Shown one piece after another: positions 1,370 to 57,185 of a stretch of 60,000 bases of DNA. Under the pieces are notes generated by a model. It did not search any database, was not told where the DNA came from, and worked only from the letters and a program-made list of their open reading frames with translations. This DNA comes from Malacoraja senta (Eukaryota): NCBI GenBank assembly GCA_038087875.1, contig CM075990.1, forward strand, positions 6,946,001 through 7,006,000. The letters are read 5' to 3'. Each line of letters starts with the position of its first letter. The stretch's first letter is position 1. Position numbers and translations under genes: made by a program.

Positions 1370-2439
1370 TAAGAACCTGACGAAGAAGGGTCTCGACCCA
1401 AAACATCACCTATTCCTTTTCTCCAGAGACGCTGCCTGCGCCGCTGAGTTACTCCAGCATTTTGTGTCTATCTTCGGTTTAAACCAGCATCTCCGTCTTT
1501 GAAACCAATCTCTTATGAATGCAGAATGCCCAGTAAAATCAATGAAAATCAGTGCCTTTAGTCTCCTAATCTCTGTGTGAGTCTTTGAGCCTGAATTAAT
1601 TGTACGTTAGAGGTCTTCATTTCAATTCAATGGATCATAGACCTTTGCCTAACATACACAGTGACTATCACATCAGGATCTCAACCCACAACAACGATGC
1701 ATCTATTCAAAGGCTCTGAGTCTCGAGGCTTTATGAATAATGAACTAACTGCTAATTTTAAGCCATCTGCTCACAACATTCCTAATACAGTAACAGTCAC
1801 CAGGGGACAGCCATAAAGACTGAAATCTTAGAAATGCCTCTCTCTCTCTCTCTGCGACTTCCAACGGAAGGAACAGGATGAGAATGGGTCAGGGCTGTGA
1901 TGCCGTTAGTGGAGCCGCTATTTCACAGCACCAACGACCTTGGGTCAGTCCTGACCTGTGTGGTCAGTGTGGAGTTTACATGTCCCCCCCTATGGGTTTC
2001 CTCCAGGTGCTCTAGATCCCTTCTGCATCCCAAAGATGTGTGGATCAGCAGGTTTAGTTGGCCTGTGCAAATTGCCCCTGGTGTAAATGGATGGTGTAAC
2101 TGATGGAAATGTGGAGAGAACAAGTAATTTAGAAAAATAATGAGGGAAGAGGATTGCTCGGAGAGCTGGCACAGACCTAGGTCACATGGGAATAAGTAAA
2201 CAGGCTGGCCCTTGAAAATGCAGGCTGTGCCAATCATCTACTCATGTGATCTTTCTAAATAACCATCCATTGACTCCACCGGATATCAGCCCAGACTGAC
2301 TGCTTCCCTGCGGTACGAGAGATCTTACTAATATAGAGATATAGTGGCCCTTCGGCCCACCGAGTCCACACCGACCAGCGATCCCCGCACACTAACACTA
2401 TTCCGCACACACTAAGGACAATTTACAATTATATTAAAA

Positions 2440-3362
2440 ATTTGAATGAGAACGTACTTGGCATGATTAGCAAGTTTGCAGATGATGCAAAAGTGGGTGG
2501 TATTGCAGATAGTGAGGATGGTTGTGAGAAATTGCAGCAGGATCGTGATCGGTCGGCCAGGTGGGCTGAGGAATGGTTGATGGAATTGCATACAGAGAAA
2601 TGTGAGGTGTTGCATTTTGGGAAATCTAATATGAATGGTAGGGCTTTTGGGAGTGTTGTAGAGCAGAAGGATCTAGGAGTACAGGTGCATGGTAACTTGC
2701 AGATGGAGTCGCAGGTAGATAGGGTGGTCAAAAAGGCTTTTGGCACATTGGCCTTCACCATTCAGAGTATTGAGTATAGAAGTTGGGAGGTCATGTTGCA
2801 GTTATACAAGATGTTGGTCCGCATTTAAAGTCTTGTGTTCAGTTCTGGGCACCATGTTATGGGAAAATGTTGTCGAGCTTGAAAGGGTACAGAGAAGATT
2901 TACGAGGATTTTGCCAGGCCTCGAGGGTCTGAGCTATAGGGAGGTTGAGTAGGCTGGGACTCTATTCCTTGTAGTGCAGGAGGATGTGGCGATTTTATAG
3001 AGGTGTATAAAATCATGAGAGGAATAGATTAGGTAGATGCACAGAGTCTCTCGCCCAGAGTAGGGGAATCGAGAACCAGAGGACAGAGGTTTAAGGTGAA
3101 GGAGAAAAGATTTAATAGGAATCTGAGGGGTAACTTTTTCACATAAATGGTAGTGGGTGTATGGAACAAGCTGCCAGAGGAGGTAGTTGAGGCTGGGACT
3201 ATCCCAAAGTTTAAGAAACAGTTAGACTGGTGCATGGATAGGACAGGTTTGGAGGATGTGGGCCAGATGCAGGCATGTGGGACTAGTGTAGCTGGGACAT
3301 GTTGGCCGGTGTGGTCAATTTGGGTCTTAGAGCCTGTTTCCACACTGGATCACTATGACTTT
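2440..3362 (+). mobile_element. CR1 LINE RT/C-terminal fragment with 3' tail
   Basis: ISKFADDAKVGG RT motif, KCEVLHFG, KDLGV, LERVQRRFTR; frameshifted. Confidence 0.9.
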
Positions 3363-3762
3363 ATATGGTTTAACTACTATCAACAACACCAACACCTTTC
3401 ACGTCCCTTGCAACTTACTAATCATACCTACTCCATACATATCCAAATCATATAACAGACAATAAGTGTCTCCACACTGATCTTTGTGGTACACCATGAT
3501 CACAAGCCTCCAATCAAATAAACACCCACTACCATAACCTTTGCCTCCCACTGCCAAGATAGTTTTGGATCCAATTTGCCAAAATGCCCTGGATCCATGA
3601 GCCTGAATCTTTTGGACCACTCTCCCATGTGGGTCCTTGTCAGGGCCTTATATGAAATCCATATCAACCACATCTATTGCACAGCCCTTGCTAATACACT
3701 TAGTTACCTCTCGGAAAAATTCAATGAAATTAAACAGACAAAATACCAACCAGCAAACCTTA

Positions 3763-4218
3763 AGGGCCTGTCCCACCAGCATGCGATAGCATGCGTCTAG
3801 CGCGACCAAACGTGGTCGCTTCAGGCATACGCCTCGCGGGGCCGGTCCCACTTCGATCGGCGGACGCGTATGGAGTTGTGCGGGGCTGGTCCCGACATCT
3901 TCAAAAATCTTGCACTGTCCGAAAATCCCGCGCGCCAACGGCCTGTCGGCCTGCAGGTGCATTGAGGGCGTACGCAGCGTCTTGACGTCGTACGCCTAGC
4001 GCGTGGCTTTGCACGATTACGTCACCGCCCAGCGTGCCGTGGCGTGATGACGTCTCTGCCGACGCCCAAATTCAGTCGGCCCGCCTCCTGCCCAGCTGAT
4101 TGGTGAGTATGATGTCGGGACCAGCCCCGCACAACTCCATACGCCTCCGCGGTTCGAATTGTGACCGGCCCCGCGAGGCCGTACGCCTCAAGCGACCACG
4201 TTTGGTCGTGCTAGACGC
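3763..4218. mobile_element. Harbinger-type MITE, right terminus missing
   Basis: TTA followed by TIR agggcctgtcccac. Long internal inverted repeat, about 3794-3850 versus 4161-4218. Confidence 0.75.
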
Positions 4219-4379
4219 TCCCAACCAAGCCATGCTGACTTTTCCTCATCAATGTGCTTTCAAGTGTAAATTAATCTTCTGCCTTAGAAGTTGTCATTCG
4301 TCATTAGTCTATTGTCATTCGTCTATTGTCAATAGACTCACAAGCCTTGTAGTTACTTGGCATATCCCTGATGCCCTTT

Positions 4380-4636
4380 TAGTTTTGTTTAGAAACAGGC
4401 CCTTTGGCCCACCGAGTCCGCGTCGACCAGCGATCCCCAAACATTAACACTATCCTACACACTAGGGACAATTTACATTTAAACCAAGCCAATTAGCCTC
4501 CAAACCTGCACGTCTATGGAGTGTGGGAGGAAACCAGAGCTCCCCAGAGAAAACCAATGCAGGTTACTGGAGAGCTTACAAACACCGTACAGACAGCACC
4601 CATAGTCAGGATCGAACCCGGGCTTCTGATGCTGTA
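4380..4636 (-). mobile_element. HE1-like V-SINE
   Basis: Reverse complement of the tRNA-head/V-domain/LINE-tail consensus seen at 9790. Confidence 0.8.
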
Positions 4637-5987
4637 GCCTGAGAGTCTGAAGAAGGATCTCGACCCGAAACATCACCCATTTCTTCTATCCAGAGATGCT
4701 GCCTATCCCGCTGAGTTACTCCAGCATTTTGTGTCTATCTTTGGTGTAAACCAGCATCTGCAGTTCCTTCCGACATACATCCTCTTGCCCTTAACGTACT
4801 TACAAGAGTGGGAAGTTTCTTTGCTGCTGCATGCACAGATCCTTCTTTGCCCTCCTGATCTCTTTGTTTAAACACCCCCAACATTCCTGAAGGGCCTTCC
4901 CAGTGTACGGTTCGCAAAATAATACTTTCTGAAATGTCAGCACTCTTTAGCAGACAATTTGGCAGCTATTGCGTACGCTCCAAGGCCAACAAAATAAACA
5001 AGTTGGAATCTTCATGGCCAGTTGGAACAGCAAAATTCCTATTAATGCTCCATCCAAAATCATCCCTGATGGTGAAGCACTTCCACAGCATTGCCAGTGC
5101 TGATAATCTGGAGTGGACGACTGCCGACTCTCACAGTCTGCTGATTCCGAATCAGAATCAGCAGACTGTGAGAATCTGCACTCATGCTTAGCACAGTACT
5201 GACCAGTTAAGCTGGTGCACCAGGCACCCGGATAAGTTGCTGCGTTTATTGCTCGAACACAGCGATCGGAAAATTGACATTAAAGGAGACATGCGGATAG
5301 ATTAAGCTGCGGCGTTCGTCTTGAGCAGAAATGCTGCAAGTTCATTCCCTGGCAAAATGCTTTTCAGATTTGAGGGTCAAAGCTGTTAACCAGTGATTTC
5401 ATTTCACTTTGGACACAGCCGCTGGGAGAGATGTGTACCTGCTCTGTTCAGTGTAACATTAGTCAGAGGGTGGTGAATCTGTGACATTCCTTGCCACGGA
5501 CGGCTGTGGAGACCAAGCCGATGGTGAATTTTAAGGCAGAGATTAACTGATTCTTGATTAGTAAGGGTGTCAAGGCTCATGTGGAGGAGAATGGGGTTGA
5601 GAGGGAAAGCTATGATTGAATGGCGGAGTAGACTTGATGGGCCGAATTGCCTAAATCTGCTCCTAGAACTTATGAACTTGTGCATCTTTCAATCAATTCA
5701 GTCATACATATCAGTGTTTCAAAATTTTAGACGGCAGGCAGTTTAAAATTGTGGTCAAGGCCATTCATGGAAAACAAAGTACAGGGCCCTAGTGAGACCA
5801 CACCTGAAGTATTGTGTGCAGTTTTGGTCCCCTAATTTGAGGAAGGACATTCTTGCTATTGAGGGAGTGCAACGTAGGTTTGCAAGGTTAATTCCCGGGA
5901 TGGCGGGACTGTCATATGCTGAGAGAATGGAGCAGCTGGGCTTGTACACTCTGGAGTTTAGAAGGATGAGAGGGGATCTCAATGAAA

Positions 5988-6733
5988 CTTCTTTTGTCCC
6001 GTTGTTGCGGTTTGTTTTGGTTTATTTTAGTTGTGTATGTGTGGGGGGGTGGGAGAAGCATGTTTTTTGGCTCTTCCTTCGGGGGGGATGCGACCTTTCT
6101 TGCCGTATACCCCGTCTCCGTCTGCGCTGAGGCCTATCGCGGAGCTGGCGGCCTCCAACTGGGACCGATCTCGGGGCTCGGGAGGCAGAGCCAGCCGGGA
6201 CTTGCCAGCGCGGGGCTGGCCGACTTCGGGGCTGTGGTGGCGTTGCGACCGGACTTCCGACCCGACTTCGGAGCCTCGGAGGCTCGGCGAGGGCCAGTGG
6301 ACGACATCGTCGGGAGCTCGCAGGTCACAGGTTGGTGACCTGTTTTTCCGTAGCTCCCGCAACAACAGCTGCGTCCGCTGGACTGGAGGGCGGCAGCTTC
6401 GGCAGCTTCGACCGCCCTGGGCCACGGAGTTTGAACTGGCCTGTTCAGATTCAGCCGCGGGACTTACTTACCATCACCCGGCGGGGTCACAACATCGGAG
6501 GCCTGGATCGCCTCAGGGCAGAGGGAGAGCAAGGAGGGAAGAGACATGGACTTTGGGACTTTTTGCCTTCCATCACAGTGAGGAGGTGCCTGGTGGACTC
6601 ACTGTGGTGGATGTTAAACTGTGTTGAGTGTGTGTTTTTGTTATTTATTCTATGTTATGACTGCAGGCTAAACCATTTCGTTGCACTGAAAAGTGCAATG
6701 ACAATAAATTGAATCAAAATCAAAAATCAAATC
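5988..6733 (+). mobile_element. GC/CpG-rich non-autonomous retroelement with LINE-type 3' stem-loop and simple-repeat tail, inserted in a CR1 fragment
   Basis: Ends ttgcact-gaaa-agtgcaa-tgacaataaa-(aaatc)n. CR1 sequence breaks at about 5987 and resumes at about 6735. Confidence 0.6.
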
Positions 6734-6857
6734 AAATAAGATTGTTAAGGGATCAGGGGATATGGGGAGAAGACAATGCACGAGGTCTGAGAAATGATGA
6801 ATTTGATGGGTCAATTTGAGTGAAAAATGGACAGAAAAATGATGAGAGATACAATAC

Positions 6858-6931
6858 CATATTAAATGTGTTCCCCAAATCTAAGTTTAGCTTGTCCACT
6901 GGTTGACCTTCACCTACAGGACATCTTTCTT
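6858..6931 (-). CDS. Candidate small linker exon (EERCPVGEGQPVDKLNLDLGNTFNM)
   Basis: Pyrimidine-rich acceptor tttattgtgttctttgaag gives phase 1, in frame with the previous exon. Donor ATG|gtattg is weak and no homology is recognised. Confidence 0.4.
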
Positions 6932-7139
6932 CTTCAAAGAACACAATAAATTATTCCAACATCATTTAATTTCACAAAATTACGTTATCCTACCGGATCG
7001 TCTTGGATTTATAGATATGACTTGTTAAAATATCTTTAGTAATAGTTTCTCTGCCAGATGTTAAACTAAATGCCTGGTGATTACCAGTTTTCTGTCTCCT
7101 TTTCTTAATAAAGGAATTACATTTTTTTCCCAATGTAAC

Positions 7140-7895
7140 CGCTGAAAATGAGCACATACCCCAGTTTGAATTGATAGTACCGAAGTACAGATGGTCGAAA
7201 ACTTCAAATGTCTAAGAGTCAATATCACCAACAACTTCTCCTGGACCACCCATATTGAAGCAACGACCAAGAAAGCACACCAATGCCTCTACTTCCTTAG
7301 AGGGCTTCAGATGTTTGGCATGTCCCCTACTACTCTCACCAACTTCTACAGTTGCACCATAGAAAGCATTTTATCAGCTTGGTTTGGGTACAGCTCCATC
7401 CAGGACTGCAAGAAATTGTAGCAAATTGTGGACACAGCCCAGGCCATCACACAAACCAACCTCTCTTCTACTGATTCCATTTACACCTCACGCTGCCTCC
7501 GCAAGGCCAGCAGTATAATCGAGGACGAGTCGTACCCTGGCCACTCCATCTTCTCCCCTTTCCCATCAGGCAAAAGGTACAGAAGTGTAAAAAAGCACAC
7601 CTCCAGATTCAGGGACAGTTTCTTCCCAGCTGTTATCAGGTAACTGAATCATCCTACCACAACCAGAGCGAGTGCTGAATTACTATCTACCTCATTGGTG
7701 ACCCTCGGACTATCCTTGATCAGACTTTGCTGGATTTACCTTGCACTAAACATTATTCCCTTATCATGTACCTATACACTGTAAATGGATTGATTGTAAT
7801 CCTGTATTGTCTTTCTGCTGACTGGTTAACACGCAACAAAAGGTTTTCACTGTACCTCAGTACATGTGACAATAAACTAAACTACAACTAAAATG
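7140..7895 (+). mobile_element. Rex1/Babar-type LINE 3' fragment
   Basis: FKCLRVNITNNFSWTTH...KKAHQCLYFLR...TNFYSCTIESILS and RFRDSFFPAVIR, ending in tail catgtgacaataaactaaact. Confidence 0.85.
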
Positions 7896-8039
7896 AATAT
7901 TTATTATTTTACTTTTTATTGAGTGTTTAAGAAAGTTGCTTGGAAAAGATTCAAGGATTAATCTCAGCACTTCTATGAGCATGAGAGCTTTATAAATGTA
8001 TTAATGATAATATAATAAGCAGTGGGCAGGAGTGCTTTT

Positions 8040-8317
8040 TTAGTTTAGTTTTGAGATACAGCGCAGAAACAGGCCGCTTGGTCCACCGAGTCCGCGCCGA
8101 CCCACAATCCCCGCACGCTAACACTATCCTACACACAGTAGGGATAATTTGCATTTATACCAAGCCAATTAACCTACAAACTTGTATGTCTTTGGAGTGT
8201 GGGAGGAAACTGAAGATGTCGGAAAAAAACATACAGGCAGTGCCCGTTGTCGGGATCGAACCCGGGTCTCTGGCGCTTTAAGGCAGCAACTCTACCGCTG
8301 CGCCATTGTGTTGCCCC
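8040..8317 (-). mobile_element. HE1-like V-SINE
   Basis: Matches the family consensus in reverse. Confidence 0.8.
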
Positions 8318-9026
8318 TGATGAAATGTTAGTCAGTTTGAAGAAGGGTCTCGACCAGAAACATCGATCAGTCTGAAGAAGGGTCTCGACCCAAAACGTCG
8401 CCCATTCTTTTTCTCCAGAGATGCTGCCTGTCCAGCTGAGTTACTCCAGCATTTTGTGTCTACCCACAGTTATAACAGCCCGCAATAAAGCTCTCTGAAT
8501 GACTCTGAATGAACGACTGCATTCTTGACTTATTGGTCACTCTCTTTCTGCACTAGTCTGACGTAAACATTGGACTGACTGACAGACTGACTGATCAGCA
8601 TAGGATAACCTTTCTATGCCAAAGCTGGGGCCTTGTTGATTATAATTCAAGCAAATGTTTCCCAGCACATTGCTCATCCCACTGAACTCCAGTATTTGTC
8701 AGGATAGATTACCTCTACTGAAGAATGTTTCCCCTTTTCCACTGACTGCAGGCCACTAACTTTTAATCAAACTGAAACATCCTGAAAAAGATTAAGGGCC
8801 ATTCCAGGGAACAAAGAGTGCAATCATTGCAAGGGTAATGATCCAAGCTACATAGGTTTATTCAGCATTTGTTAATAATTCCTAATGCAACAGTTAAAGC
8901 AAGAGCAACCACTCTTCCTGCAGCAATCAACATGTTCCCTGCTTAGATTTATTCTTGCAAAACAAAGTCTTTGCTGGATACTAATGATCTTCATGAAAGA
9001 GACAGCAACATTATGACATTAAAAAC

Positions 9027-9240
9027 AGACACAAAATGCTGGAGTAACTCAGCGAGACAGGAAGCATCTCTGGAGAGAAAGAATGGGTGATCTTATGGGT
9101 CACAACATTTCTTCAGAGTCTGAGGAAGGGTCTCGACCCAAAACGTCCATTCCTTCTCTCCAGAGATGCTGTCTGTCCCACTGAGTTACTCCAGCATTTT
9201 GTGTCTTTCTTTGGTGTAAACCAGCATCTGCAGTTCTTTT
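9027..9240. mobile_element. Fold-back Penelope-terminal-repeat-like unit with hammerhead-like motif
   Basis: Inverted copies of agacacaaaatgctggagtaactcag... flanking ctgaggaagggtctcgacccaaaacgtc. Confidence 0.65.
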
Positions 9241-9299
9241 CTCAACATTATGACATTGCTCAGTTAGAATTTTACTGTCTCTCCAATAATGAAATGCCC

Positions 9300-9750: not shown

Positions 9751-9789
9751 GGAGTCTGGATAATCTCCTTGATTCCGCTAGTCCCTGGA

Positions 9790-12020: not shown

Positions 12021-12659
12021 TACTCTGATTCTGTGACTAAAGTAGGCTGCTGGCGACTAAGAATGTGAGGTATAGGCCGGTAGGCAGGGGCTGGGGTATT
12101 ATCTCCAGCGCCTTCAAGGTTGGCTGCAAGAGGCGCCCCTGGGGCACGAGAGGCGGTCTATATCTCTCGTCCCACTTTCACCTGACTCTCAGTATGAAAA
12201 AGGGTCTCGACTCAAAACGTCACCTATTCCTTTTCTCCAGAGATGCTGCCTGACCTGCTGAGTTACTCCAGCTGTTTGTGTCCATCTTCAGTTTAAACCA
12301 GCATCTGCAGTTCCTACCAACACATTGTAGTCTTCAGCTGGCTATCGTGTGGGAATACCCACTAACATTGAGCAAGGAGCAAGTAAAACTAGGCTTCAGA
12401 ATTTGAGAAGTAGCAAAGCTTCAAAACCCAGAATTATTAAGTAGTCTATTTTAAAACACTAAAGCATTGTTGTTAATGTAATCCTGATCCCTATGTATTA
12501 ATATCACTATTATGTCTATAATTTTTTTTGTGGAAAAATTAATAAAAAGGTTTAAAAAGAAAGAAAACACTAAAGCAGAAACTATTCAGGTATTTGAGAT
12601 GAAGATCCTTCTTCTATCTCTCAACACCTACCACTGCTGATTAACACCACCACACAACT

Positions 12660-14363: not shown

Positions 14364-14910
14364 TAGTTTAGTTTAGTTTAGACATGCAGCGTGGAAACAG
14401 GCCCTTCAGCCCAGCGAGTCCGCACCAACCAGCGATCCCTGCACGTCCACACTATCCTGCGCACACTAGGAATGATTTACACTTACACCAAGCCAATTAA
14501 CCTACAAAGATGTACGTCTTTGGCGTGTGGGAGGAAACCAAAGATCTCGGAGAAAACCCACGCGGTCACGGGGAGAACGTATAAATTCCATACAGACAAG
14601 TACCCGTAGAAAGACACAAAAAGCTGTAGTAACTCAGCGGGACAGGCAGCATCTCTGGAGAGAAGGAAAGGGTGACTTTAAGGGTCGAGACCCTTCTTCA
14701 GACCCGAAACGTCACCCATTCCTTCTCTCCAGAGATGCTGCCTGTCCTGTCGAGTTACTCCAGCTTTTTTTAGTCTACCTTTGGTTTAAACCAGCATCTG
14801 CAGTTCCTTCCTGCACGGACAAGTACCCATAGTCGGGATTGGACCCGGGACTCAGGCGCTGAGAGCGCTGTAAGGCAGCAGCTCTACCGCTGCGCCGCCG
14901 TGCTGCCCTG
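14364..14910 (-). mobile_element. HE1-like V-SINE interrupted by a fold-back Penelope-type unit (about 14611-14810)
   Basis: SINE halves are separated by the insert and flanked by a duplicated acRgacaagtacccRtag. Confidence 0.8.
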
Positions 14911-14917
14911 GGACTAC

Positions 14918-15047: not shown

Positions 15048-15679
15048 CTGGAAAGATAAGCAAAAGTTCATATGAAAGGCATATTTATGGTCAGGACATA
15101 GTGTGATAGATTCTTACAGCGTGGAAACAGGCCCTTCGGCCCAACTTACCCACACTGGTCAATATGTCCCATAGACACTTGTTCATCTGCTTGCTTTTGG
15201 TCCATTTCCCTCTAAACCTCTCCGATCCATGTACCTGTCTAAATGTTTCTGAAACTAAATGTTTCTTATACTCCAAAATGCTGGAGTAACTCAGCAGGTC
15301 AGGCAGTATCTCTGGAGAATATGGATAGGTGACCTTCAGGCCGGGACCTCTCTTCAGATTGTCTGAAGAATGGTCCCAATCCAAAACCGATCCATGTTGT
15401 CTAGTGATGCTGCCTGACCCACTGAGTTACTCCAGCACTTTGTGTCTTTTTATTTGTAAACCAACGTCTGCAGTTCCTTGTTTCTACTTCCTGGTCAGGA
15501 CAATTCCCAACCAGACAGCAACATTAATCAGAGAATCTTTTCAAAATTTGCCACGCTGTGAAGAAATAAAAAAACTGAGTGCAATCAGACTCAAGATGCA
15601 ACTTATGCTGACTGCAGTGTGATGCTATTCTGTACAGTTCAGAGGTCACAGGTCAATTGCAGGTTGTCCTCATCTATGT

Positions 15680-15945: not shown

Positions 15946-16519
15946 TGTGATACAATCACCAGCTGCTTATCAAAGACAATCCCATACTAGAGATGTGGCA
16001 CAGCATTTCACTTGGATACAACTGAACAGCTCACAAATAGAGATGAACAAACCAGATGGAGCGTTGACCAACTCTGGTATGGGTTGAAGGATCATAAAAT
16101 CAAAGCATCAACGTTGTTTCTCCTACCACAGATACTGCTTGACCTGTTGAGCATTTCCTGCATTTTCTTTCTTTGTTATACATTCCCATCATGTGCCAGT
16201 TCATTGTCATAACCATCCATTTGCACAAAGATTATTACAATACAGAATGAGGCCATTCATCCCATTAGTTCCATACTGGCTCCCAGCAGAGCAATCCCAT
16301 CGATCCCACTCTGTTCCTCCCATTTCCCTGTGGCCCTGTAACTTATATTCTCTCACATATCAACTTCCTTCTTTGAATACATTATAAATGCTGCAATACA
16401 GTGTTGAGAATGAGGAAAATGTTCACAGCAATGTTTAACTGCGGGCATTCTGTACCTAAATAATGGACTAATCAAATCAGACTTTCAGCCTCTGTTTTAA
16501 TTATATATATAAACCATTA

Positions 16520-16761: not shown

Positions 16762-16934
16762 TTAGTGATCACACTAATGATATAATCAAAAAGCATTGTC
16801 AAAGAGCACACACAATGCAGAAACAAGGAATGCTGATTAATGCACGAAAGGACACAAGATGCTGGAGTAACTCAGCAGGTCAGGTAGCATCTCTAGCAAA
16901 CATGGATAGGGGACGATTCGGATCAAGACCCTTA

Positions 16935-17433: not shown

Positions 17434-18089
17434 TTAGTTTAGTTTAGAGATACAATGTGGCAGCAGGCCCTTTGGCCCACCGAGTCCACACCAACCAGTG
17501 ATCACCCCGTACACTAGCCCTATCCTACACAATATGGACAATTTACAATTTTTGCATTGTGGGAGGAAACCGGAGGAAAAACCATGTGGTCACAGGAAGA
17601 ATGTACAAACTCCACACAGACAACACCCGTAATCAGAATCTCTGCCGCCGTAAGGCAGGAACTCTGACGCTGCACCACTGTGCCTTCAGACTGAACATAG
17701 GTCGGTGACATTTCGGGTCGAGACCCTTCAGTTTAGTTTAGTTTAGTTTAGAGATACAGCCCACCGAGTCCGCGCCGAACAGCGATCCCCATACACTAAC
17801 ACTATCCTTCACACTAGGGACAATTTTACAATTTTTCCAAGTCAATGAACCTACAAACCTTCTTCAGACTGCAATGGGCATAGTAGCCTTGTTGGAATTG
17901 GACAGACTGCATTTAGCTGCAGAAGAATAAAGACAAAGCATTTACCGAAGAAAGGTCTCGACCCGAAACCTCACCCATTCCTTCTCTCTAGAGATGCTCC
18001 CTGTCCCGCTGAGTTACTCCAGCTTTTTGTGTCAATCTTCGGTTTAAACCAGCACCTGCAGTTCCTCCCTCCACAAAGCATATACTGAC

Positions 18090-20996: not shown

Positions 20997-22072
20997 TCAA
21001 TCACGGACGATAATGAACCAGATTCACCAACACCAAGGGAGCCATCTTACCATCCTTACCCGAGGCAGGCCCATCAAAGCGGTAGATTCATAACTTCTTC
21101 CTGGTTTCAGTATAAATTTAGGACGCCTAATTAGCATCAGTGAGATCAGTAGCCTTCGTAGTCCATGAAGAAATAAAAAAAAGTTCAGAATTCCCATTTG
21201 TTGAATGGAGAATTATCACCAGGAAAATGGGAAATAAAATCTCAGTTATTTAGCCTCACATTTTACTTCAGTTCAATGTTTCGGATTATCACATTTTTGA
21301 TGGGGTTTTTTCTCATTAACTTTTCTTAATGGTTCCAATACCTATTTATTTATTTCATCCAGTGAAGCTTAAACTATTGCTTCTGAGCTTTGTGTCATTA
21401 TTTGATGTGCAGCTTTCAATCGCTCTATGTGAACATTGCATTGTGAGATTAGAGTATTTGTACTATATTTGTGCTATGTTATACACTACTGCACTGGAAC
21501 AGCGGGGGAATTCTATAAAGAGTCTACTTTAAACAATCAAATGCATCCTCCCGTGAAAGTTAGTACCCCCTGCTCAGATGCACAAAATCAAAAAATGTCC
21601 AAAAGCATTTGTGTCATTTTGTGGAATTCAATGCCACAGACAGCTGTGGAGGCCACGTCATCGGGTATTTTTAAAGCGGAGATTGATAGGTTCTTGACTC
21701 GCACGGGTGTCAAAGGTTATGGGGAGAAGGCAGGAGAATGGAGTTGAGAGGGAAAGATAGATCAGCCATGATTGAATGGCGGAGTAGACTCGATGGGCCG
21801 AACAGCATAATTCTGCTGCTGTGACTTATGAAAGCAACAAAGAATTGTCCACATATGAAGACAACTGCAGTACTTTGGAAGAGAGGTAGGAATGCAATTT
21901 ATTTCTGCCCAGGCAAATTAGACCAGAGAAATAACAGACTGCAGATCCTGGAATCTGGAGTAAAAAAACTGTTGGAAGATCTCAGCACGTCAAGCAGCAT
22001 CTGTGGAGACAAAAGGATGGTCGGCGAATTTTGATACCGCTAGACCTGCAGTAGTGCGGGACAGATGGTGGG

Positions 22073-22420: not shown

Positions 22421-22526
22421 CTATGGGCCCACAGGGTTGTGCTCCGTGGGCTGTTCCCCAGAACTGAGAGGTGTTTCACGTTCTGAGGGACTGGAGTGAC
22501 TTGTTCACATATCACTGGAAGCCAAA

Positions 22527-25680: not shown

Positions 25681-25833
25681 CAATGGGGAAGCTGAGATCC
25701 AGACCATGCTTCTGTTTGCCATGGTATAGAGATGGTTCCTGCAAACCATTTGCATCCAATGGCTTGCAACAATGAGTATGCCCAATCACCAGCTCCTTTG
25801 TGACATTCATCCCTGCCAACTTAATATCACAAT

Positions 25834-38628: not shown

Positions 38629-39063
38629 CAGGGGTGGGCAACCTTGTTTGGCATAGGGGCCAGGACGCATGTCTGTGAGCGGATGGCGGGCCACATCTAT
38701 CACATGTACACATGGATCCCGTCCCCATCCCGCCTCGGATGGCAGACCTCAAATCATTGTTCACAGAAGGTAGACAAAGATGCTGGAGAAACTCAGCGGG
38801 TGAGGCAGCCTCATGCAGTCTCACGCGCTGAGTTTCCCCAGCATTTTTGTCTACCTTCGATTTTTCCAGCATCTGCAGTTCTTTCTGAAACATGTTCAAG
38901 GAAGGTGCGCGGCCGTGCCGTCGGCTTTGCGCAGGATGCGGTACAGCCAGAGCTCGGCGCTCGGCCGTGCCGGATGATTACGGGAAGAAAAATCCGCCTG
39001 TGGGCCGGATGATTTGTGTTACGGGCCGCATTCGGCCCGGGGGCCGTAGGTTGCCGACCCCTG
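38629..39063. mobile_element. hAT (Charlie-type) non-autonomous element
   Basis: TIRs caggggtgggcaacc / ggttgccgacccctg, perfect 8-bp TSD ctctagag at 38621-38628 and 39064-39071. Confidence 0.9.
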
Positions 39064-40580: not shown

Positions 40581-42159
40581 AACCAGCTTGACTTACTGAT
40601 CAAGAAACCAGCTTCATCAAGCTCCCCAGGTGACCCAGCAGAAAGTCCTCTTTCATTTTGCAGAAATCTTTTTTTCATTTTGGCTCTACTTCACAGCCAA
40701 GTGAAGCTACTCATGCGTCCAAAGAAAAAGCAAAGGCTTCGTGCGCTTGGCTGCCTCTCTGAAGACTTATTTGGCAGAGCTTTAAGGTCAGAGGGGAAAA
40801 GTTTAAAGGAGATGTGCGGGGCAGGTTTCTTTCCCCACACTGAGGGTGGTGGGTGCCTGGAACGCCTTAATGGTGGGTGAGGTGGTGGCAGAGGCAGATA
40901 CGACAGGGGTGATTAAGAGGCACATGGATATGCAGGGATTGGAGGGATATGGATCACGAGCAGGGAAGGAGATTACCTTGGCATCATATGTAGGAAGGAA
41001 CTGCAGATGCTCGTTTAAATCGGATAGACACTCAGTCTGAACAAGGGTCTCGATCCGAAACATTAACTATTCCATTTCTCCAGAGATGCTGTCTGACCCG
41101 CTGAGTTATTCCAACATTTTGTGTCTAACTTGGCATCATGTTCAGCACGGATATTGAGGGCCGAAGGCCTGTTCCTAGGCTGTAGTTTTATATTCAATGG
41201 TAGTTTGAAGATCAAGTTTAAGATCAAATTCAAGAGAGTTTATTGCCATGTGTCCCTGATAGCACACCAGAACATAGACGGCATGAATACAGAACAGATC
41301 AGTGTGTCCATATACCATTATATAAATATATACACACATGAATAAATAAAGATGTCGTATGTATGATTTAGTAATTATTTGTGAGCCCTGACGTAAACCA
41401 ACCCCCCTTGGGTATTGAATCCCTGTTAGAGGGTGACTTTCATTTACAGGTAGACAAAATTGCTGGAGAAACTCAGCGGGTGAGGCAGTATCTATGGAGC
41501 GAAGGAAATAGGCAACGTTTCGGCCTGAAACGTTGCCTATTTCCTTCGCTCCATAGATGCTGCCGCACCCGCTGAGTTTCTCCAGCAATTTTGTCTATCT
41601 TCGATTCTCCAGCATCTGCAGTTCCTTCTTGAACACTTTCATTTACAGCATGTTCCCACAGAGGGAATAGCTGGAAAGAGATGGTAAATTCCAATGTTAC
41701 ATCCAGCAAATGCTTGCCTTTGCCATTGATGGGGCAGTACAATGGGCTCTGGCTGTGGGGACCCATTGCCCACTCTTGTGCTTGCTTGCACCTTGTGTAA
41801 AACCTTCCAAGTCTGAAGAAGGGTCTCAACCGGAAACATCACCCATTCCTTCTATCCAGAGATGCTGCCTGTCCAGCTGAGTTACTCCAGCTTCCAAGGA
41901 GAAGGCTGTACCGATGGGAATGGGGAGTTCCGCCTTCTCCTGGCAAGATGGTGTGGTGACACAGGCTCTGATAACGCTGAGGATGTCACACTGATCTGCC
42001 GATCACCACACGTAGATGTGGAAGAAGTGGAGCTTTCACAAGATCAGGCTTCTTCTACGATTCAGTCCTCCCGTGATCACAGCTCCCCGCCATCTCTCCG
42101 GTGACTTACTGCCCGTCCCACAGTACATTGTGCAGAAAACAATGCTGGGGGATCTTGAG

Positions 42160-42468: not shown

Positions 42469-43005
42469 AAAAATCAGAACAGGCAGCATTTGTGGAGGGA
42501 AATGGTCAGGTGACCTGACCCATTGAGTTTCTTCACCAGTTTGTTTTTTGCTCTGGATTCCAGCATCTGCAGTAACTTTTGCCTCGACTTCTAGTCATTT
42601 ATTTCTGCTCTGGAAGTATAAATAACGAGTGTACCTATGCGTGGTATATCCTGACCTGTTTGCATAGCAAGCAAAACTTTTCACTGTACCTCAGTACTAG
42701 CAACAACAATAAACCTAAACCTGCAGGAAGGAACGGCAGATGCTGGTTGACACTGAAGATGGACACAAAATGCTGGAGTGATTACCTCCAGAGTTACTCC
42801 AGCATTTAGTGCCTATAAACTTAAACCTTGAGAATGTATCAGTGCAGCAAGCAGTGTGAAGAGGAGATTAACTCGTCACAAGCCTCTCGCAAGCCCTGAC
42901 AAATAGATGAAGTTACTTGTGTAGGAAAGAACTGCAGATGCTGGTTTAAATCGAAGACAGACACAAAATGTTGAAGTAACTCAGCGGGCAGGCGGCATCT
43001 CTGGA

Positions 43006-43327
43006 GACAATAGACAATAGACAATAGACAATAGACAATAGGTGCAGGAGTAGGCCATTTGGCCCTTCGAGCCATTCAATGTGATCATGGCTGATCATCC
43101 CCAAACAGTACCCCGTTCCTGCCTTCTCCCCATATCCCCTGACTCTGCTATTTTTAAGAGCCCTATCTAGCTCTCTCTTGAAAGCATCCAGAGAACCGGC
43201 CTCCACCGCCCTCTGAGGCAGAGAATTCCACAGACTCACCACTCTCTGTGAGAAAAAGTGTTTCCTCGTCTCCGTTTTAAATGGCTTACTCCTTATTTGT
43301 ATACTGTGGCCCCTGGTTCTGGACTCT
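43006..43327 (-). mobile_element. CR1 3' end inserted in a Penelope-type fold-back
   Basis: (gacaata)n tail; ctctggaga is present at both junctions. Confidence 0.8.
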
Positions 43328-44281
43328 GGAGATGGATTTGGTGATGTTTCGGGTCTGAAGAAGGGTCTCGACCCAAAACGTCACCCATTCCTTCTCTCCA
43401 GAGATGCTGCCTATCCCACTGAGTTACTACAGCATTTTGTGTCTGCCTTAGATGAAGTTACTCTCCTGTTACCCTATAGTTTTCATGACAACATAATCCA
43501 AAAATTGGCTCCGGACCAACAGAGACCTGCACAGAAATGCTCTGAGAATATTTATTCGATTTGTCGCAAGGTGCCTTCAATTGTTTGGCTTTGAACACAC
43601 ACACACACACACAGTGCTGAGGAATGTACTCAGAGAGCTGTTGTCCTGGCGTTCTGCAGATCCTGTTACAAGCTTGAGAAGGTGGCCCAGGTCACTTTAC
43701 CCCTGACTGTATTCAGCTGCCACGCAGCATCAGAAAGATTCCCTTTGATTGTTCAAGGAGGAAGCAGAGAAGTGGGGAACAGAGCACAGACATCTTGAAA
43801 TGCCTTCAGAATGTCCACAATGCAGAAACTGTTAACAATAAAATGCCTCGAATCCTTTAGGGACTGAAAGCCCATGCTAATTTCTGAACCTCTTGTCGAG
43901 TCAAAAGACATTCTGTGACTTGTACAATAATGGCCCCAGGATCGAATGTATTTTGGCACAGATAAATTACCTTATTCTTTATTCAGTGGCAGCTTGACCT
44001 GTATGTAATGGATGGTAATTTCACAAACGCTATTGTATTGGCGCAGACTTGCCACTTTCAAGCATCAGAACCCTTAGTCATACAGCAGCAGTATTTCCAA
44101 ATACATTTCAGTGTTATGTTCCCAAGCTTTTCCAGTTATAAAACCTGCCAAGAATGCTTGACCCTGCTTATTGGACAGAGATTAATATACCAAGTGTATG
44201 CCTGACCTGTTTCTATTCTGGTGTATCTTTGTGGGATGAGTGTAAGAATGTCGAGTGTACGAGTGCAGAGTGTAGGAGTGT

Positions 44282-44944: not shown

Positions 44945-46163
44945 AAGTAAACCCTTGTTGTAACGGACCGCTTTATAACGGATTTTGGTTACAGCGGATG
45001 GACGTACCGATGGCAGACACCATCCCCGGCTCTCACGTCACCCGACTGCCCATGGCACTCCCTGTTCGTACCGCCATGCTGACCACTTGCAGGCTGGACC
45101 CTTGCTGGCCCACACAGCTTCCTCAGCTACTCCAGGCCAAGTCTTCCACCGCCGTCGTCACCTGCCCTTACCTGATCTCCGGCCGCCCGCGGGCCGCGAC
45201 CATCGACTCCGCCGATCCTCGCCTCTCCCCCGGCCGCAGGCAGAGCGGGGCCGTCAACTCACCCGGATTCCAGGCCCAGTTCCAGACCGAGAGCCTGAAG
45301 AAGGGTCTCGACCCAGAATGTCACCTATCCATGTTCTCTAGAGATGCTGCCCGACCTGCCGAGTTACTCCAGCACTTTGGGTCCCTTTGTGTATTAAACC
45401 AGAAACTGCTCGGTTGCACAGCGGTATAGTTGCTGCCTGATAGCCCTGCCCCACTGTACGAGTTCATTCCAAGAGCTCTCCCGAGTTTAAAAAAAATCAA
45501 ACTCGTGGTAAGCACGGAGAATGAACGTAGCGGGTACCTCGGAGCTCTGGGACGTCTCTTAGCGCTAACGGCAGGTACTCGGGAAGACTCGCTAACGGCA
45601 GGTAAGCATGGGAAGACTCGTGAAGATTTTTCAACATGATGAAAAATGTCCACGAGAGCCCCGAGTACCGACGAGTGGCCATTACCGTAAATCTCCGACT
45701 TCGAATCAGGGCAAACTCGGGAGAGCTCTTGGAATGAACTCGTACCGTGGGACAGGGCTTTTACAGCGCTTGCAGCGCCAGTGAAGCGGGTTCAATCCTG
45801 ACTACAGGTGCTGTCTGTACAGAGCTTGTACGTTCTCCCCGTGACCACGTAGGTTTTCTCCGAGGTCTTCGGTTTCCTCCCACACTCCAAAGATGTACAG
45901 GTTTGTAGAATAATTGGCTTGGTATAAGTGTAACTTGTCCCTAGTGTGTGTAGGCTAGTGTTAATCTGCGGGGATCGCTGGTCAGTGCGAACTCGGTGGG
46001 CCAAAGGACCTGTTTCTGTGCTGTGTAACTAAACTAAACTGCAGTTGTTTGTTTCAACTACTTATGCAATGATAATCTCTTACACGGTTATAACAGACAT
46101 GCAGCAATAACAGACAACACCCCCCCCCCCTCCCCCATGGTCATTCATAACAAGGGTTTAGTG
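44945..46163. mobile_element. Tc1/mariner (Tigger-like) non-autonomous element with nested insertions
   Basis: Degenerate TIRs aagtaaacccttgttgtaacggacc / ggtcattcataacaagggtttagtg and subterminal (t)ataacRga repeats. Confidence 0.55.
45441..45760. mobile_element. Harbinger-type MITE inserted in a SINE head (SINE about 45415-46040, +)
   Basis: Splits the SINE consensus gttgctgcc-TTA-cagcgc; flanks are tga and tta. Confidence 0.88.
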
Positions 46164-47433: not shown

Positions 47434-47451
47434 TAATGAACCCCCTCCAAT

Positions 47452-49560: not shown

Positions 49561-49974
49561 TACCTACACCTTTTAGCAGAGAGAAAAAGTTTGAAGATGT
49601 AAGGGGCAGAGTGGTGGGTGCCTGGAACGCGCTGTTCCAGGAACCAACCGTCAACCACCATTTACATTAGTTTGACACTAATCCATTCTGTTCTCTCCTC
49701 GCAGATTTGTCCCGCTTACTCTGCAGGTCGTATGTTCAATCCCCCAACCCACTTAGGGCCAAGTCATTCTGGACTCGGAGACAACGAAGGGAAGATATTT
49801 TCTAAAATTGCAGATGTTGGAAATCTAAAATCAAAGTGGAAAACACTCAGCAGGTCAGCCAGCCTCTGTGGAAGGAGAAACAGTAATGCTTCAGGCCAGG
49901 AGATCTTCGTCGGAACCGACAGTGAAGGGAATTCAGAAACCAAGTTACCGTCTGCTCCATTTTCCACGAAGTTA

Positions 49975-51185: not shown

Positions 51186-52195
51186 TCAAGAGTCAAGTCA
51201 AGAGTGTTTTATTGCCCCATGCCCCCGACAACAACAAAGTGCTTAGATAGACACAAAAAGCTGGAGTAACTCAGCGGGTCAGACAGTATCTCTGGAGAAA
51301 GGGAAATCTGACCCGATGAGTTACTCCAGCTTTTTAGACAATAGACAATAGAAAATAGGTGCAGGAGTAGGTCATTTGGCCCTTCGAGCCAGCACCGCCA
51401 TTCAATGTGATCATGGCTGATCATCCTCAATCAGTGTCTATCTTCAGTTTAAACCAGCATCTGCAGTTCCTTCCTACACAATTAAATCCTTACTTGCAGC
51501 AGCACAACAGAACATGTAAACATAGTACACTGTAAATATAATAAATGAGGAAAAAGGTTCAATGTGTGCATTTATACCTATACACATGCACATAAACATA
51601 CAATCTGAATTGAGTCTGAAGAAGGGTCTCGACCCGAAACTTCACCGATTTCTTCTCTCCAGAGATGCTGCCTGTCCCGCTGAGTTACTCCAGCTTTTTG
51701 CGTCTAGCTTCGATTTAAACCAGCATCTGCAGTTCTTTCCTACACATAAACATACATATATATAGAAACATAGAAACATAGAAAATAGGTGCAGGAGTAG
51801 GCCATTCGGCCCTTTGAGCCTGCACCGCCATTCAATATGATCATGGCTGCATATACTGCATGGATTTCCTCCGGGTGCTCCGGTTTCCTCCCATATCCCA
51901 AGACATGCTGGTCGATATATGAATGGTCACAGTAAATTGTCCCTAGTGTAGGTCGGTAGTTAGAGAAGTGCGGATGTTAGAGCTTATGGAGCGAATAGGT
52001 AACTGGAAAATAAGCAGGGAAGTAGGATTGCCAGCATGGACTTGATGGGCCAAATGGCCCAGGAAATATGAGAAGCTGAACAAATGTTATTATTTTCTTT
52101 CACATCCATGAAACCCTTGGGAGATTTCTCACACTGAAGACACAATGTAAATACTGACATGCATCGAGCCAGTAAATAACTTGAAAATAAATTAC

Positions 52196-52336
52196 CTTCC
52201 ACACAATTCTCCTGCAGGACCTCTGAGGCTTGCAGTAACAAAGCCCAGATGTCATCATCTTCAACAGGGCTTCCCTTGGCCTCCAGAACTTCCGTCAGAG
52301 TCACGTAAGAATTATTCATCTCTGACCTGAGCAACC
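52196..52336 (-). CDS. FRMPD2: FRMPD2-like exon, start of KIND domain (..MNNSYVTLTEVLEAKGSPVEDDDIWALLLQASEVLQENCVE-G)
   Basis: Acceptor tcttccatttcag, donor GAAG|gtaatt, 141 nt, phase 1-1, in-frame ATG at 52319. Peptide matches the KIND N-terminus pattern V(S/T)LxExLExRGxPxxEEEIWxLL of FRMPD2/PTPN13. Confidence 0.85.
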
Positions 52337-54777
52337 CTGAAATGGAAGAAGCGTGGATATGAATCAGAATTGTTGGCAACATCGTAAAAACAACATCGCA
52401 GAATCTCAGGACAGAGACCTTTCAGCCCAATATATCATTTCAGATCATCTATTCATTGATTCGCACACCAACTCCACTATTTCTCACTATCCTGCAATTC
52501 TGTTCATTTTCTGTTAAAGTTCGCGCTAATTCTGCTTTCAATCAATGTGTCACAGATTATTACAGCTTGCTGCATGGGGAGAGATATCTTTTCATTGCCC
52601 ACTTGAGTTACTTTACCAGTTTTCTTAAATCAGTGTCGACTGGCCACTAATTCACCTGCCTGGCAAAGTCATTTCACCACGTTGATTGACAGATTGACCG
52701 ATCTATCGATCGATCGATTGATTGATACTTTATTATCACGTGTGACATGTCGTTACTGCATTTCGTTGTCTCTGTACTTGTACACTGCACAATGACAATA
52801 AAGTTTGAATCTCAATCTGAATCTGAATCTGAAAGTGAAATTCTTTCTTTTGCATAAAATATGCAAAGAGTTGCCATGTATAGGGCACCGGCAAAGTTAT
52901 ATTATTGTCCCCAATGCTGGGTCCCCCCTTTGTTCTCGGCGGCCCCTCAATGCCGGGCCCCTCTTTCTTCTCGGCTTGCATCCTCGACCGACCTCCAGCA
53001 CCCACCGTGGGCCCTTCCTTGGCTGCCCGCCTCCGCGTCCCCTCTTGGACGGTTCCGCGGCACTCCCCTGGAGCTTCTGATGGCCCACCTCGCTCTCCCA
53101 CGGCCCACATTCCTCGACCGCCCACCTCACTCCTCGACGGCCCACCTGGCCCCTCGGCCGCGAGAAAGAATAGCCGCCGAGCAGCAGAGTTCACCTTTCA
53201 GACAAACTAAGCCTTAAGCCGACCGTTTGCAAGCAGTTCACATTCCCCTGTCGGTACATTGCTGGTAATGCCATCACTCAGACCGACTTTCACTTGCACA
53301 GGATGCATGTATGCAGACAGAAACATCACTCTCAGATGTTACATCAGCACAGGGCCATGAATTATTTAGACCTGCAAATTAGTGAGAGTTAGAAAGCACA
53401 CAAACACCAAGACTTCAAACAAGTGAACCCCTGGATATGATCATCACCACAGCTTGCATACAATGCCCACCTCAATACAATGCCAAGCACAGAGAATGCT
53501 TTGCAATGGTCCATCCATTAGTCTTAGGGTTTGTTCCCTCCCCAAGTCTAGAGTCAGGGGTTGTTTTATCATCATATGTCCCAAAACAGAACAATTAAAT
53601 TCTCAGCGTAACAGGTTTGTAAAGAGAGTACTCAATAGATAATATAACAGACAAACAAAAAGAAAGTTCAATAGGTTAGTTGGTTACGGTAAAATTGTAA
53701 ATGGTCCCTGGTGTGAGTAGGATAGTGTTGGTGTGCGGGGATCGCTAGTCGGCGCGGACTTGCTGGGCTGAGGGGCCTGTTTCCACACTGTATCGCTAAA
53801 CTAAATAACTAAATAAATAAATTAAATAAAAACCCAATTTAAAAAAAAGAACCAAACAAAGCCTCAAGGTTGCTAGTGTAATAGGAGCAGGGGTAGGCCA
53901 TTCGGCCCTTCGAGCCAGCACCGCCATTCAATATGATCACGGCTGATCATCCAGAATTCCTGCTTTCTCCCCATATTCCGTGATTCCGTTAGCTAGTCAG
54001 TTTGAAGTTCGGAGTTTAGTTGGAGTTTGCAGCGTTCAATAGCCTGATGGTTGTTGGGAAGAAGCTGTTCCTGAACATGGAGCTTTCAGTTCTGTGATCC
54101 AATACCTTCTTCCCGATGGCAGGAGGCAGATGAGAGCGTAGCCAGGGTGGTGTTGGTCCTTGAAAAAGTTGGCTGCCTTTTTGAGAAAACACCTCGTATG
54201 GACCCCTTCGATGGTAGGAGGTCAGTACCGTGCTGAACCATGGAGAAGCGTCTCGACCTGAAATGTCACCTCTTCCTTTTCCTCAGACTAAGATGCTGTC
54301 TGACCCACTGAGTTACTCCAGCTTTTTGTGTCTATCGCCCGTGATGGACCATGTCATTACACATTTGGAACGTTGTAGTCCCTAATGGTTCCCATTTTCG
54401 AGAAGATGATTTGGTATAAAGTATAGAGAGGAAGCCATTCAGTCGCTTGAACCTCTTCTATCATAGAGATGGATCACAGTTGATCAAAGCAAGAGCCAAG
54501 AGCTATTCAGATGTTGGGTAAATGAAGGTATATGGAGTTAGTGCAAGTGAGCAGCGCTGAGGTTAAAGGTCACCAAGAGCTGGCTGATAGATGAGGAGTT
54601 ACAAAGGGCTGAATGGCCTCCTTCTATTTTTATGTCCAGTTAATTAGATAGTTAGTTGGTTAGCTTATTGTCACATGTACCGAGGAACAGCGAAAAGCTT
54701 TTGTTGCGTGCTAACTAGTCAGTGGAAAGGCAATAACATGATTATTACAATCGAGCCATCCACAGTTTTTTCGTTTT

Positions 54778-55052
54778 TTAGTTTTAGAGATACAGCACGG
54801 AAACAGGCCATTTGGCCCACCAAGTCCACGCCGACTAGCAATCCCCGCACACCAATGCTATCCTGCACACGAGAGACAATTTACAATTAAACCAAGCCAA
54901 TTAACCTACAAACCTGTACGTCTTTGGAGTGTGGGAGGAAACTGGAAATCCCGGAGAAAACCCACGCAGTTCACAGGGAGAACGTACAGACAGCACCCGT
55001 AGTCAGGATTGAACCCGGGTCACTAACGCTGTAAGGCAGCAACTCTACCGCT
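54778..55052 (-). mobile_element. HE1-like V-SINE
   Basis: Family consensus in reverse. Confidence 0.8.
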
Positions 55053-55497
55053 ACGTGAATGAGTCTTGCGCTGATATTCTGATTCCATCTACCTGTTTTG
55101 GCTCCAGAACTTTTGTACCAAACAGAAACATCTGTGTAGAAGTTATTTTTTGTCATTTTTGCGTAAATCTATTCATTTTAGTCCAGTCATATAGGAAACA
55201 GTTTGTGAGACAGCTGGTGGCCGGCCGCTTAACAGCATGCGGTGAAGGTTCGATTTTACATCTGTCTGAATTAAAATTTGTGCATTAATCAATTAGGCAG
55301 GGCTCAGCACTGAAGCTCCAGCAGAAGACCCGAGCTTCAGGAACATGGCTCTGATCCGAGACTGGACCCAGCCACTGCAGTTAATGACCATAAGGTAAGT
55401 CACAGTTGATTTCTATCTCAGTTTGTGTCACTCGGTATGGCCAAAGGGGCATCTGGCCATAGAGTCCAGAGAGATGCAGCACAGAAACAGACCCTTA

Positions 55498-55964
55498 AGG
55501 GCCTGTCCCACTTGGCCGTCATTTGCGCCTCATTTACGCGTTATATGTAAATTAGGTCGACGCATTGTGACACCTGGGGTGCGCATGGTGAGGCGTGGAA
55601 TCGTATGCTGTGGCGTGCGGTATCGTGCGGCGCTCCAGGATTTAGTACAGGAATGAATTCCTTGCGCACCACCTGCGTGACGTATCGCGTATGCACGCTG
55701 ATGCTTTGGGTACGCACGCTGACGCATTGGCGTCGTACGCTGGCGTCCCGACGTCTCACGTGAATCGCGTGGTAACGCATGGTTACGTCACCGTGCGTCA
55801 ACATCCTTGCGTCAACGTCCTGCCACGCGCCGCAGGGTATTCTAATGACGTCACACGCACCAGACTCGTGATTTGCGCGCGACGTCGTGCATCACGACGC
55901 GTTGACCTATTTTACATATGATGCATAAATGAGGCGCAAATGACGGCCAAGTGGGACAGGCTCT
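55498..55964. mobile_element. Harbinger-type MITE
   Basis: About 39-bp TIR agggcctgtcccacttggccgtcatttgcgcctcattta, TTA TSD. Confidence 0.9.
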
Positions 55965-57185
55965 TTACACTCACCAAATCCACAAAGATCACACAGCCTC
56001 CACTGTTCCAACCATCTTACCATCCATCGTTTTATTCTCTCCACATTCACAGGGGGGATTTACAGTGATCAATTAACCTGTCAACAACGAATTGAGGGTA
56101 GACAAAAAATGCTGGAGAAACTCAGCGGGTGAGGCAGCATCTATAGAGAGAAGGAATTGGCAACATTTCCATTGCAAATTCCTTCTCTCCATAGATGCTG
56201 CCTCACCCAGTGAGTTTTTCCAGCATTTTCTGTCGACATTTGATTTTTCCAGCATCTGTAGTTCTTTCTGAAACAACAAATTGAGGATGTGGGAGGAAAC
56301 TGGAGCACCCAGAGTGAACCAGTGGAGTCACAGGGAGAGCGTGCAAACTCCACAAAGATAGCACCCAGTTGCTGCAGCTGTGAGGCAGCAGCTTCATTAG
56401 CTGCACCTCTCCAGCCAGCTGGTGGGGGTGAGGGGGGAAGGTTGGCTTATGAGGAAAGGTTACCTGAACTGGAGTTTAATAAGAGGAAGGAGAGACAACT
56501 GAGGGGTCTCAATGGAGTGGATGTGAGGAGGATACCTCCTCTTGAGAAAGAACCTAGAACTTGGGGCCTCTTTAAAAATAACTGGTCACCCATTTAAGGC
56601 AACCAAGCACCAATACTTTTGTTTCTCTGAAGGACATGAAACATAGAAACATAGAAAATAGGTGCAGGAGTAGGCCATTCGGCCCTTCAAGCCAGCACAG
56701 CCATTCAATAAGGTCATGGCTGATCATCCAAAATCAGTACCCCATTCCTGCTTTCTCCTCACATCCCTCGATTCCATTTTTGAGTCTTTGGAAATCTTTC
56801 CCTTAAAGGGCAATTCATGCAGATTGCTTGAATATTTTTAAGACAGAGATGGATGGATTCTTAATTAGGAAGAGGATGGACAGTCACCAGAGGTAGGCAG
56901 CAATATGGAATCGAGGTTACAATTAGATTAGTCGTGATCGTATTTAATGGTGGAGTAAGCTGAATGGCTGGAATGGCCAACTATACCTGCTGGTTCATAT
57001 GCTTGTTAGCTTCCTGCCTGCCATTATAGCAAGTTAGAGTGTGTCATACCTATAACACAGGTCGTTCCATTTGGATTTTGACTGAACCTATCCTAAAGAG
57101 GATGATACAGCCCATAGCTGGCCCTTTGGCCCAATGAGACCATGCTGACCCACATCCGACCATTCACACCAATCCCCTGTTATTT

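Follow-up and report, generated by a model that had tools for sequence, protein, structure and literature searches.

In a 60,000-nucleotide stretch of the Malacoraja senta genome (assembly GCA_038087875.1, contig CM075990.1, positions 6,946,001 to 7,006,000 of the forward strand; hereafter the window, in whose numbering coordinates are given), a short repeat unit bearing a minimal hammerhead-ribozyme motif recurs many times. Our results suggest that this unit is the pseudo-long terminal repeat (pLTR), with an optional tail of ~35 nt, of an autonomous Penelope-like element (PLE) which by its motifs belongs to the Neptune type, and that the numerous short copies probably represent dead side products left when it inserts, each made anew from uncleaved RNA. 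We put the probability of this reading at roughly 85%.

Individual copies of the unit (arms) were detected with a profile built from 15 natural copies, which was applied to the window and to sampled genome stretches. The window holds 55 such arms spread over 35 sites, while a BLAST tally gave 50 and the reversed-sequence control none. An earlier sequence-only reading had claimed about 25 elements; the repeat family is real and the unit was found at each position listed, but that tally was too low. The core layout it described was also confirmed, the majority core being CUGAAGA-A-GGGUCUCGACCC-GAAACGUC, as was the decay of CpG dinucleotides, 108 of the 401 arms having an A in place of the G of GAAA. 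Absent from that reading was the head-to-head arrangement seen at 16 window sites, several of them with target-site duplications (TSDs).

Copy number was estimated from 94 stretches of 10 kb taken at round coordinates on large contigs, with six further stretches beside the window excluded from the estimate. These contained 447 arms, or 4.8 per 10 kb (bootstrap 4.0–5.5), which extrapolates to about 0.9 million arms genome-wide. In the 1.0-Mb sample, 5.3% of the sequence is taken up by profile matches, and in the window 8.7%. The exact ribozyme-core pattern matched the genome 41,995 times, compared with no match for the reversed control, and a looser descriptor gave 53 hits in 0.94 Mb, corresponding to about 110,000 genome-wide. 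Short copies far outnumber those bearing an open reading frame (ORF), with 17 of the 526 arms beginning at the profile's 5' end. The unit is also present in four contig sets, presumably of RNA, from three organisms; such contigs cannot reveal ends or expression.

The origin of the unit was traced through its surroundings. In 11 of 12 genomic loci, including the fragment in the window, it lies 3' of a GIY-YIG endonuclease domain in the same orientation, 115–280 nt further on. From the 5' part of the ORF, which was reached by walking through overlapping natural copies, 24 loci were taken, and in 8 of these the unit and its tail continue directly into the ORF. These positions identify the unit as an autonomous element's pLTR together with the tail, placed at both ORF ends by a partial tandem. 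This agrees with the Penelope pLTR origin advanced in the sequence-only reading, which had named a match to Penelope termini in the same genome as a check, while its proposal of a separate non-autonomous, retrozyme-like family was not supported, the unit being an integral end of the autonomous element. Short copies grade continuously into 5'-truncated, ORF-bearing ones.

Natural copies carry DKG, reverse transcriptase (RT), CX4CXXC linker and CCHH/GIY-YIG motifs. Pieced together from overlapping copies, they describe a single ORF with a telomerase-like RT and a C-terminal, CCHH-bearing GIY-YIG domain in an element of roughly 3.7 kb (sum of overlaps). Among six ORF pieces, one matched Pfam RVT_1 (E 3.5e-8) and Pfam GIY-YIG was detected in none. 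A CX2-5CxxC linker ahead of the endonuclease together with a DKG motif defines the relevant group of endonuclease-bearing (EN+) PLEs (PMC8557442), and both are found here. The element is thus placed in the Neptune type by motifs and these definitions rather than by a tree. In the window it is represented at 1–490 (−) by a broken fragment, with its limit near 490, that comprises the linker Cys motif and the GIY-YIG endonuclease. The GIY-YIG fragment noted earlier at 1–440 (−) was borne out by these motifs as a broken domain with the Cys motif ahead of it, and a Pfam search with its 78-aa open piece gave no match. The fragment's own 3' pLTR, which has an exact core, is situated ~175 bp beyond the left edge of the window (L001:1294-1325). 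At loci L101, L108, L111, L113 and L115 the ORF frame begins to be open at the CUG in the hammerhead box and stays so across the tail and up to the first in-frame ATG, which stands ~45 nt past the tail and overlaps a splice-donor-like motif.

To establish where the copies begin, we examined their 5' ends, which concentrate just before CUGA. The cleavage site showed no excess of arm starts (profile positions 206–214 had 1.2 per nt, the same as in flanking bins), which argues that the cut RNA is not the template. Of the arms that bear a core but lack an inverted partner (n = 169), 124 have no upstream sequence in common with another locus, while the other 45 continue into a shared untranslated region (UTR). 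Most of 17 rearranged loci were likewise joined at a few bases ahead of CUGA. Since the 5' ends pile up before CUGA and not at the cleavage site, the copies are likely run-off cDNAs of uncleaved RNA. The bases before CUGA match what we take to be the initiator consensus in all subfamilies seen, and RNA synthesis may start there.

The arrangement of neighbouring arms is equally characteristic. Arm pairs within 30 bp of each other (n = 140) comprised 107 head-to-head, 11 tail-to-tail and 22 direct ones, 16 of the head-to-head pairs lying in the window. The 3' ends form two groups ~35 nt apart, at profile positions 270–279 and 307–314, and one short arm was combined with one long arm in 71 of 87 classifiable pairs, compared with 49% expected (p 5e-10; 20 pairs with other ends were left out). 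A TSD score of at least 9 was obtained for 37 of these 71 short-long pairs, one of them an element-internal match, compared with 2 of 400 mismatched flanks; TSDs were mostly 11–18 bp long with 65% A+T. The inverted 5' copy, the one-sided tail and the TSD that characterize EN+ PLE insertions are thus all present. Arms of the same pair diverge by 14.6%, compared with 22.0% between pairs (90 pairs), and junction signatures were distinct in 100 of the 107 head-to-head pairs. As the arms of a pair are alike and the junctions differ, each pair is one insertion, and it was likely made anew. Rare variants common to both arms showed a slight excess (0.18 per pair, compared with a null of 0.08) and were not used.

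The course of events that would produce such copies can be outlined as follows. The element protein would nick both DNA strands, and each nick would prime one cDNA, synthesis beginning at internal sites of which one lies about 95 nt and the other about 130 nt from the 5' edge of the hammerhead. Both cDNAs would usually stop at CUGA or immediately ahead of it, the most likely reason being that the RNA has its start there, at the initiator-like YCAGT, and they would join the target or one another through microhomology. Cleavage by the ribozyme would take place only in a dimer or when a protein assists, and the ribozyme would not be required for making these copies. A similar picture has been obtained for the Poseidon element PAc of Anolis, where two RT start sites set the tail, both strands are extended, unprocessed RNA is the main substrate and the hammerhead is protein-assisted (Frangieh et al. 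2024, PMC11167929). In common with the present element, PAc has its hammerhead where pLTR and ORF meet, a tail set by two internal RT start sites and a lack of RNA ends at the cleavage site. It differs in belonging to another clade, in having been tested in vitro while the element described here is known from sequence, and in the position of the first in-frame ATG, which is at stem II in PAc and ~45 nt after the tail here.

Several observations weigh against this interpretation. The RNA start, the cleavage and the enzymatic steps are deduced from DNA copies. The 5' ends are scattered 0–6 or more nt before CUGA, which polymerase stalling would also fit, and the raw peak of starts was inflated because the profile models a single UTR subfamily; it was corrected by the count of upstream sharing, in which rare UTR types were possibly miscounted. 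The cap-G test gave 16 G, 12 A and 2 T among non-C bases, so that G lay above base composition (p 0.004) but A was likewise high. A clear TSD was lacking in 34 of the 71 short-long pairs. No intact full-length copy was found, all copies examined being broken, and the linker motif on which the Neptune placement partly relies also occurs in Nematis.

The most probable alternative is self-priming or fold-back on one template, possibly an antisense one, in which case the pile-up of 5' ends would mark a stall or fold-back point and not the RNA start, and two-strand priming would not be involved. Such a process has been proposed for PLE palindromes (PMC3846280) and would explain the palindromes seen here, 59 of the 107 head-to-head pairs have arms with a common inverted stretch where they overlap, and the sequence before the core forms a small palindrome. 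However, this palindrome is central in only 5 of the 107 pairs, and fold-back by itself explains neither the combination of short and long arms nor the solo copies that stop at the same place. We therefore consider it unlikely.

It is considerably less probable that the short copies form a family of their own, spreading from short master copies through ribozyme-cut circular RNA in the manner of retrozymes. The large excess of short copies over ORF-bearing ones would suit this view, and pLTR-derived retrozymes have been reported in vertebrates (bioRxiv 10.64898/2026.07.22.740005). One head-to-tail array, consisting of four 99-bp units that each begin where the hammerhead does and finish at the short end, was found ~16 kb right of the window (L161:5722-6090); it is retrozyme-like in layout and shows that such arrays can arise locally, but its cores are decayed. 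Moreover, direct orientation accounts for only a small minority of close neighbours, junctions are almost all distinct, the cleavage site is not where the copies end, and head-to-tail units each with a complete hammerhead, by which retrozymes are recognized, were not found. The non-LTR retrozymes (PMC7229834; bioRxiv 10.64898/2026.07.22.740005) are likewise short, non-coding, related to PLE pLTRs and equipped with a type I hammerhead, but they form head-to-tail arrays with a complete motif of canonical type I in each unit (PMC7229834), whereas the copies described here are solo or head-to-head, with minimal, mostly decayed motifs and a 2-bp helix I. The retrozyme explanation is thus largely refuted.

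Least probable of all is that the unit is an exon, bounded by an acceptor immediately ahead of CUGA and by a donor 45 nt past the tail, and that the short copies stem from spliced or back-spliced RNA: acceptor-like and donor-like motifs do lie on either side of it, both arms of one head-to-head insertion (L203:1370-1875) carry the exact post-tail-to-core join and a D. virilis intron ends at helix I (PMC4209133), but post-tail-to-core joins were scattered in the 17 loci that have them, with a single exact splice junction in this control, and none of six loci matching an ORF-end-to-core join resembled intron removal or gave an intron-less form, so that splicing and back-splicing were rejected.

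We also compared the motif itself with known hammerheads. The majority motif of subfamilies A and B fits the printed consensus of the minimal hammerhead ribozyme (min-HHR), with CUGANGA, the extra base, a stem II with G10.1-C11.1, GAAA, a palindromic 15.2-16.2 and NUH, which supports the minimal type I hammerhead recognized in the sequence-only reading. No single window copy fits this consensus, in line with its expectation of mostly inactive copies. A min-HHR descriptor gave 60 hits in 1.06 Mb, compared with 0–1 in each of five shuffles, and was passed by one of the 55 window arms. This only hit, the + core at 24562, has a G.U in place of G10.1-C11.1, and the core at 27481 (−) has a U/C mismatch at the same position; neither of the two copies named as intact therefore has the consensus core. 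Helix I, given as 2–4 bp, was 2 bp in 40 of the 60 descriptor hits and 3–4 bp in merely four. Rfam hammerhead families, the model check suggested earlier, gave no match in the window (E up to 5) or on the intact core (E up to 10), and minimal motifs are not expected to match; the Rfam microRNA matches correspond to the fold-back pairs.

Four differences between subfamilies A and B fall inside the motif, all of them one-sided and pairing-preserving, and no two-sided pairing change was seen within these subfamilies. Among 20 copies of an older family, the 5' strand, which the search had left free, pairs at helix I positions 1–4 in 17, 11, 10 and 13 copies, respectively; a tie of this family to an adjacent GIY-YIG domain could not be established. 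Its core with a predicted 4-bp helix I matched the genome 34 times (L183-L202). Diverged older pLTR relatives lie in the window at 960–1075, 16086–16203, 21934–22012, 42514–42579 and 49805–49912, and a search with the old fragment at 955–1075 retrieved only itself and one short match. Non-CpG positions of the core vary less than downstream ones (5.6% compared with 12.7%, p 0.009), and the catalytic G, which is within a CpG, decays like other CpGs (29% compared with a mean of 25%). Because subfamily differences confound the comparison of core and downstream variation, no selection on inserted copies is claimed.

For three of four natural copies with an exact core, the monomer was predicted to fold with −3.9 kcal/mol, compared with −12 to −15 kcal/mol for a competing hairpin; this hairpin with the downstream pyrimidine tract was predicted to be 8–11 kcal/mol more stable than the hammerhead. 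Read-through of head-to-head pairs was predicted to bury the cores, and read-through RNA at 24562 would be expected from the predicted fold to lock the core in a long hairpin. Activity of the master motif is plausible by analogy with its family, for which low activity of dimers (PMC4209133) and assistance by protein (PMC11167929) have been described.

The sites in the window illustrate the range of these forms. Head-to-head pairs with a TSD are located at 9017–9247 (short arm −, long arm +; 15 bp), 14603–14817 (joined inside stem II; 18 bp, two mismatches), 25830–26057 (15 bp), 40985–41133 (11 bp), 41440–41635 (subfamily B; 14 bp), 42721–42816 (short and core-less; 14 bp, one mismatch), 42916–43454 (interrupted by later repeats; 13 bp, by eye) and 56091–56275 (subfamily B; 15 bp, one mismatch). 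Further pairs are found at 15274–15481 (older subfamily, TSD not resolved), 24464–24658 (centred just before CUGA), 33177–33382, 38757–38894 (no core, subfamily B tail) and 51243–51480 (core-less, with a tail fragment), two pairs stand side by side at 26288–26717, and one pair each is contained in groups of three arms at 28392–28642 and 36312–36505, the latter arms being truncated. Solo arms with a tail occur on the + strand at 4641–4777 (mutated stem II and palindrome), 12158–12325 (with a piece of upstream UTR), 17947–18075 (TSD 12 bp, one mismatch, by eye) and 51605–51747 (mutated palindrome; TSD 14 bp, by eye). Other solo arms are located at 16830–16933 (−; truncated core), 27387–27484 (−; short end, with the mismatch at the base of stem II described above), 33513–33606 (+; no CUGANGA), 41810–41893 (+; cut 3' end), 45292–45409 (+; older subfamily) and 54240–54337 (+; short end, decayed core). 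An arm with a decayed core at 1382–1494 (+) is inverted relative to the GIY-YIG fragment, a locally duplicated core is followed by a short-end arm at 8291–8479 (+), and a core fragment lies at 17702–17729 (−).

Besides these arms, the window contains a short interspersed element (SINE)-like repeat of ~196 bp at 23272–23467 (+), the first 66 nt of which match the model of the CPEB3 ribozyme, a hepatitis delta virus-like ribozyme, with 28.3 bits, which falls short of the gathering score (35). At least 40 copies with 90–93% identity were found among 1,889 candidates, and all ten aligned copies share the GGCCCC at their start, where cleavage is predicted, and finish in short GAA repeats. No covariation was found in six copies. 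This repeat is likely a ribozyme-headed SINE. Fragments at 22055–22486, 2337–2828 and 565–915 (all +) are presumably of non-LTR retrotransposons, namely an L1/Tx1-like RT piece and CR1-like RT and 3' pieces, and GC-rich inverted-repeat elements at ~3762–4220 and 1100–1370 look by eye like non-autonomous DNA transposons. A short exon-like translation at 52002–52210 (−) has what we take to be KIND-domain-like wording, so the window probably lies within introns of a host gene.

Compared with the min-HHRs known from PLEs, the present motif shares CUGANGAH with an extra base after this first box, the G..C stem II, GAAAN, the palindrome and NUH, as well as its location in pLTRs, mostly as dispersed single or opposite-strand motifs, and the 2-bp helix I of some species. 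In contrast, stem II is shorter here (4–5 bp), and copy number exceeds the 4,000–9,000 given for coelacanth and Xenopus, though it is comparable in order to the 120,000 hammerheads reported for axolotl (PMC7229834). Insertions of EN+ PLEs (Arkhipova et al. 2013, PMC3846280; Craig et al. 2021, PMC8557442) likewise show partial tandems, a head-to-head inverted, 5'-truncated copy, a tail of 30–40 bp on one end, TSDs and, at the C-terminus, a GIY-YIG with the linker Cys motif; here, however, the minimal two-arm form without an ORF is very common, and TSDs are longer than the 8–10 bp of the rotifer examples. The surveyed part of the published min-HHR species list names no cartilaginous fish, and no description of the family in this group was found in the literature, although it may be catalogued in Repbase, Dfam or subscription journals.

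That Penelope ends carry hammerhead motifs and that an inverted copy is combined with a tail had already been published, and the finding is ordinary apart from the very large number of copies. For annotation, this one repeat end makes up about 5% of the genome. The value of the copies is that of a very large natural data set on PLE integration and on the role of the ribozyme, and the short/long asymmetry inside one TSD agrees with the two-site, two-strand priming shown in vitro in another clade. An internal promoter within the pLTR has been described for a Drosophila element (PMC2377424). We tentatively propose, at a little less than even odds, that the hammerhead region doubles as an internal promoter, with a start at YCAGT three bases before CUGA, and that priming by the protein takes place on both strands of the target, ~95 and 130 nt downstream. 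If so, nearly every insertion would be a 'strong-stop' cDNA, and full-length Penelope copies would need a read-through tandem RNA or a template jump. The ribozyme would then not define the copied RNA, and the ~0.9 million stubs would preserve a fossil record of where the RNA starts and of the two priming sites.

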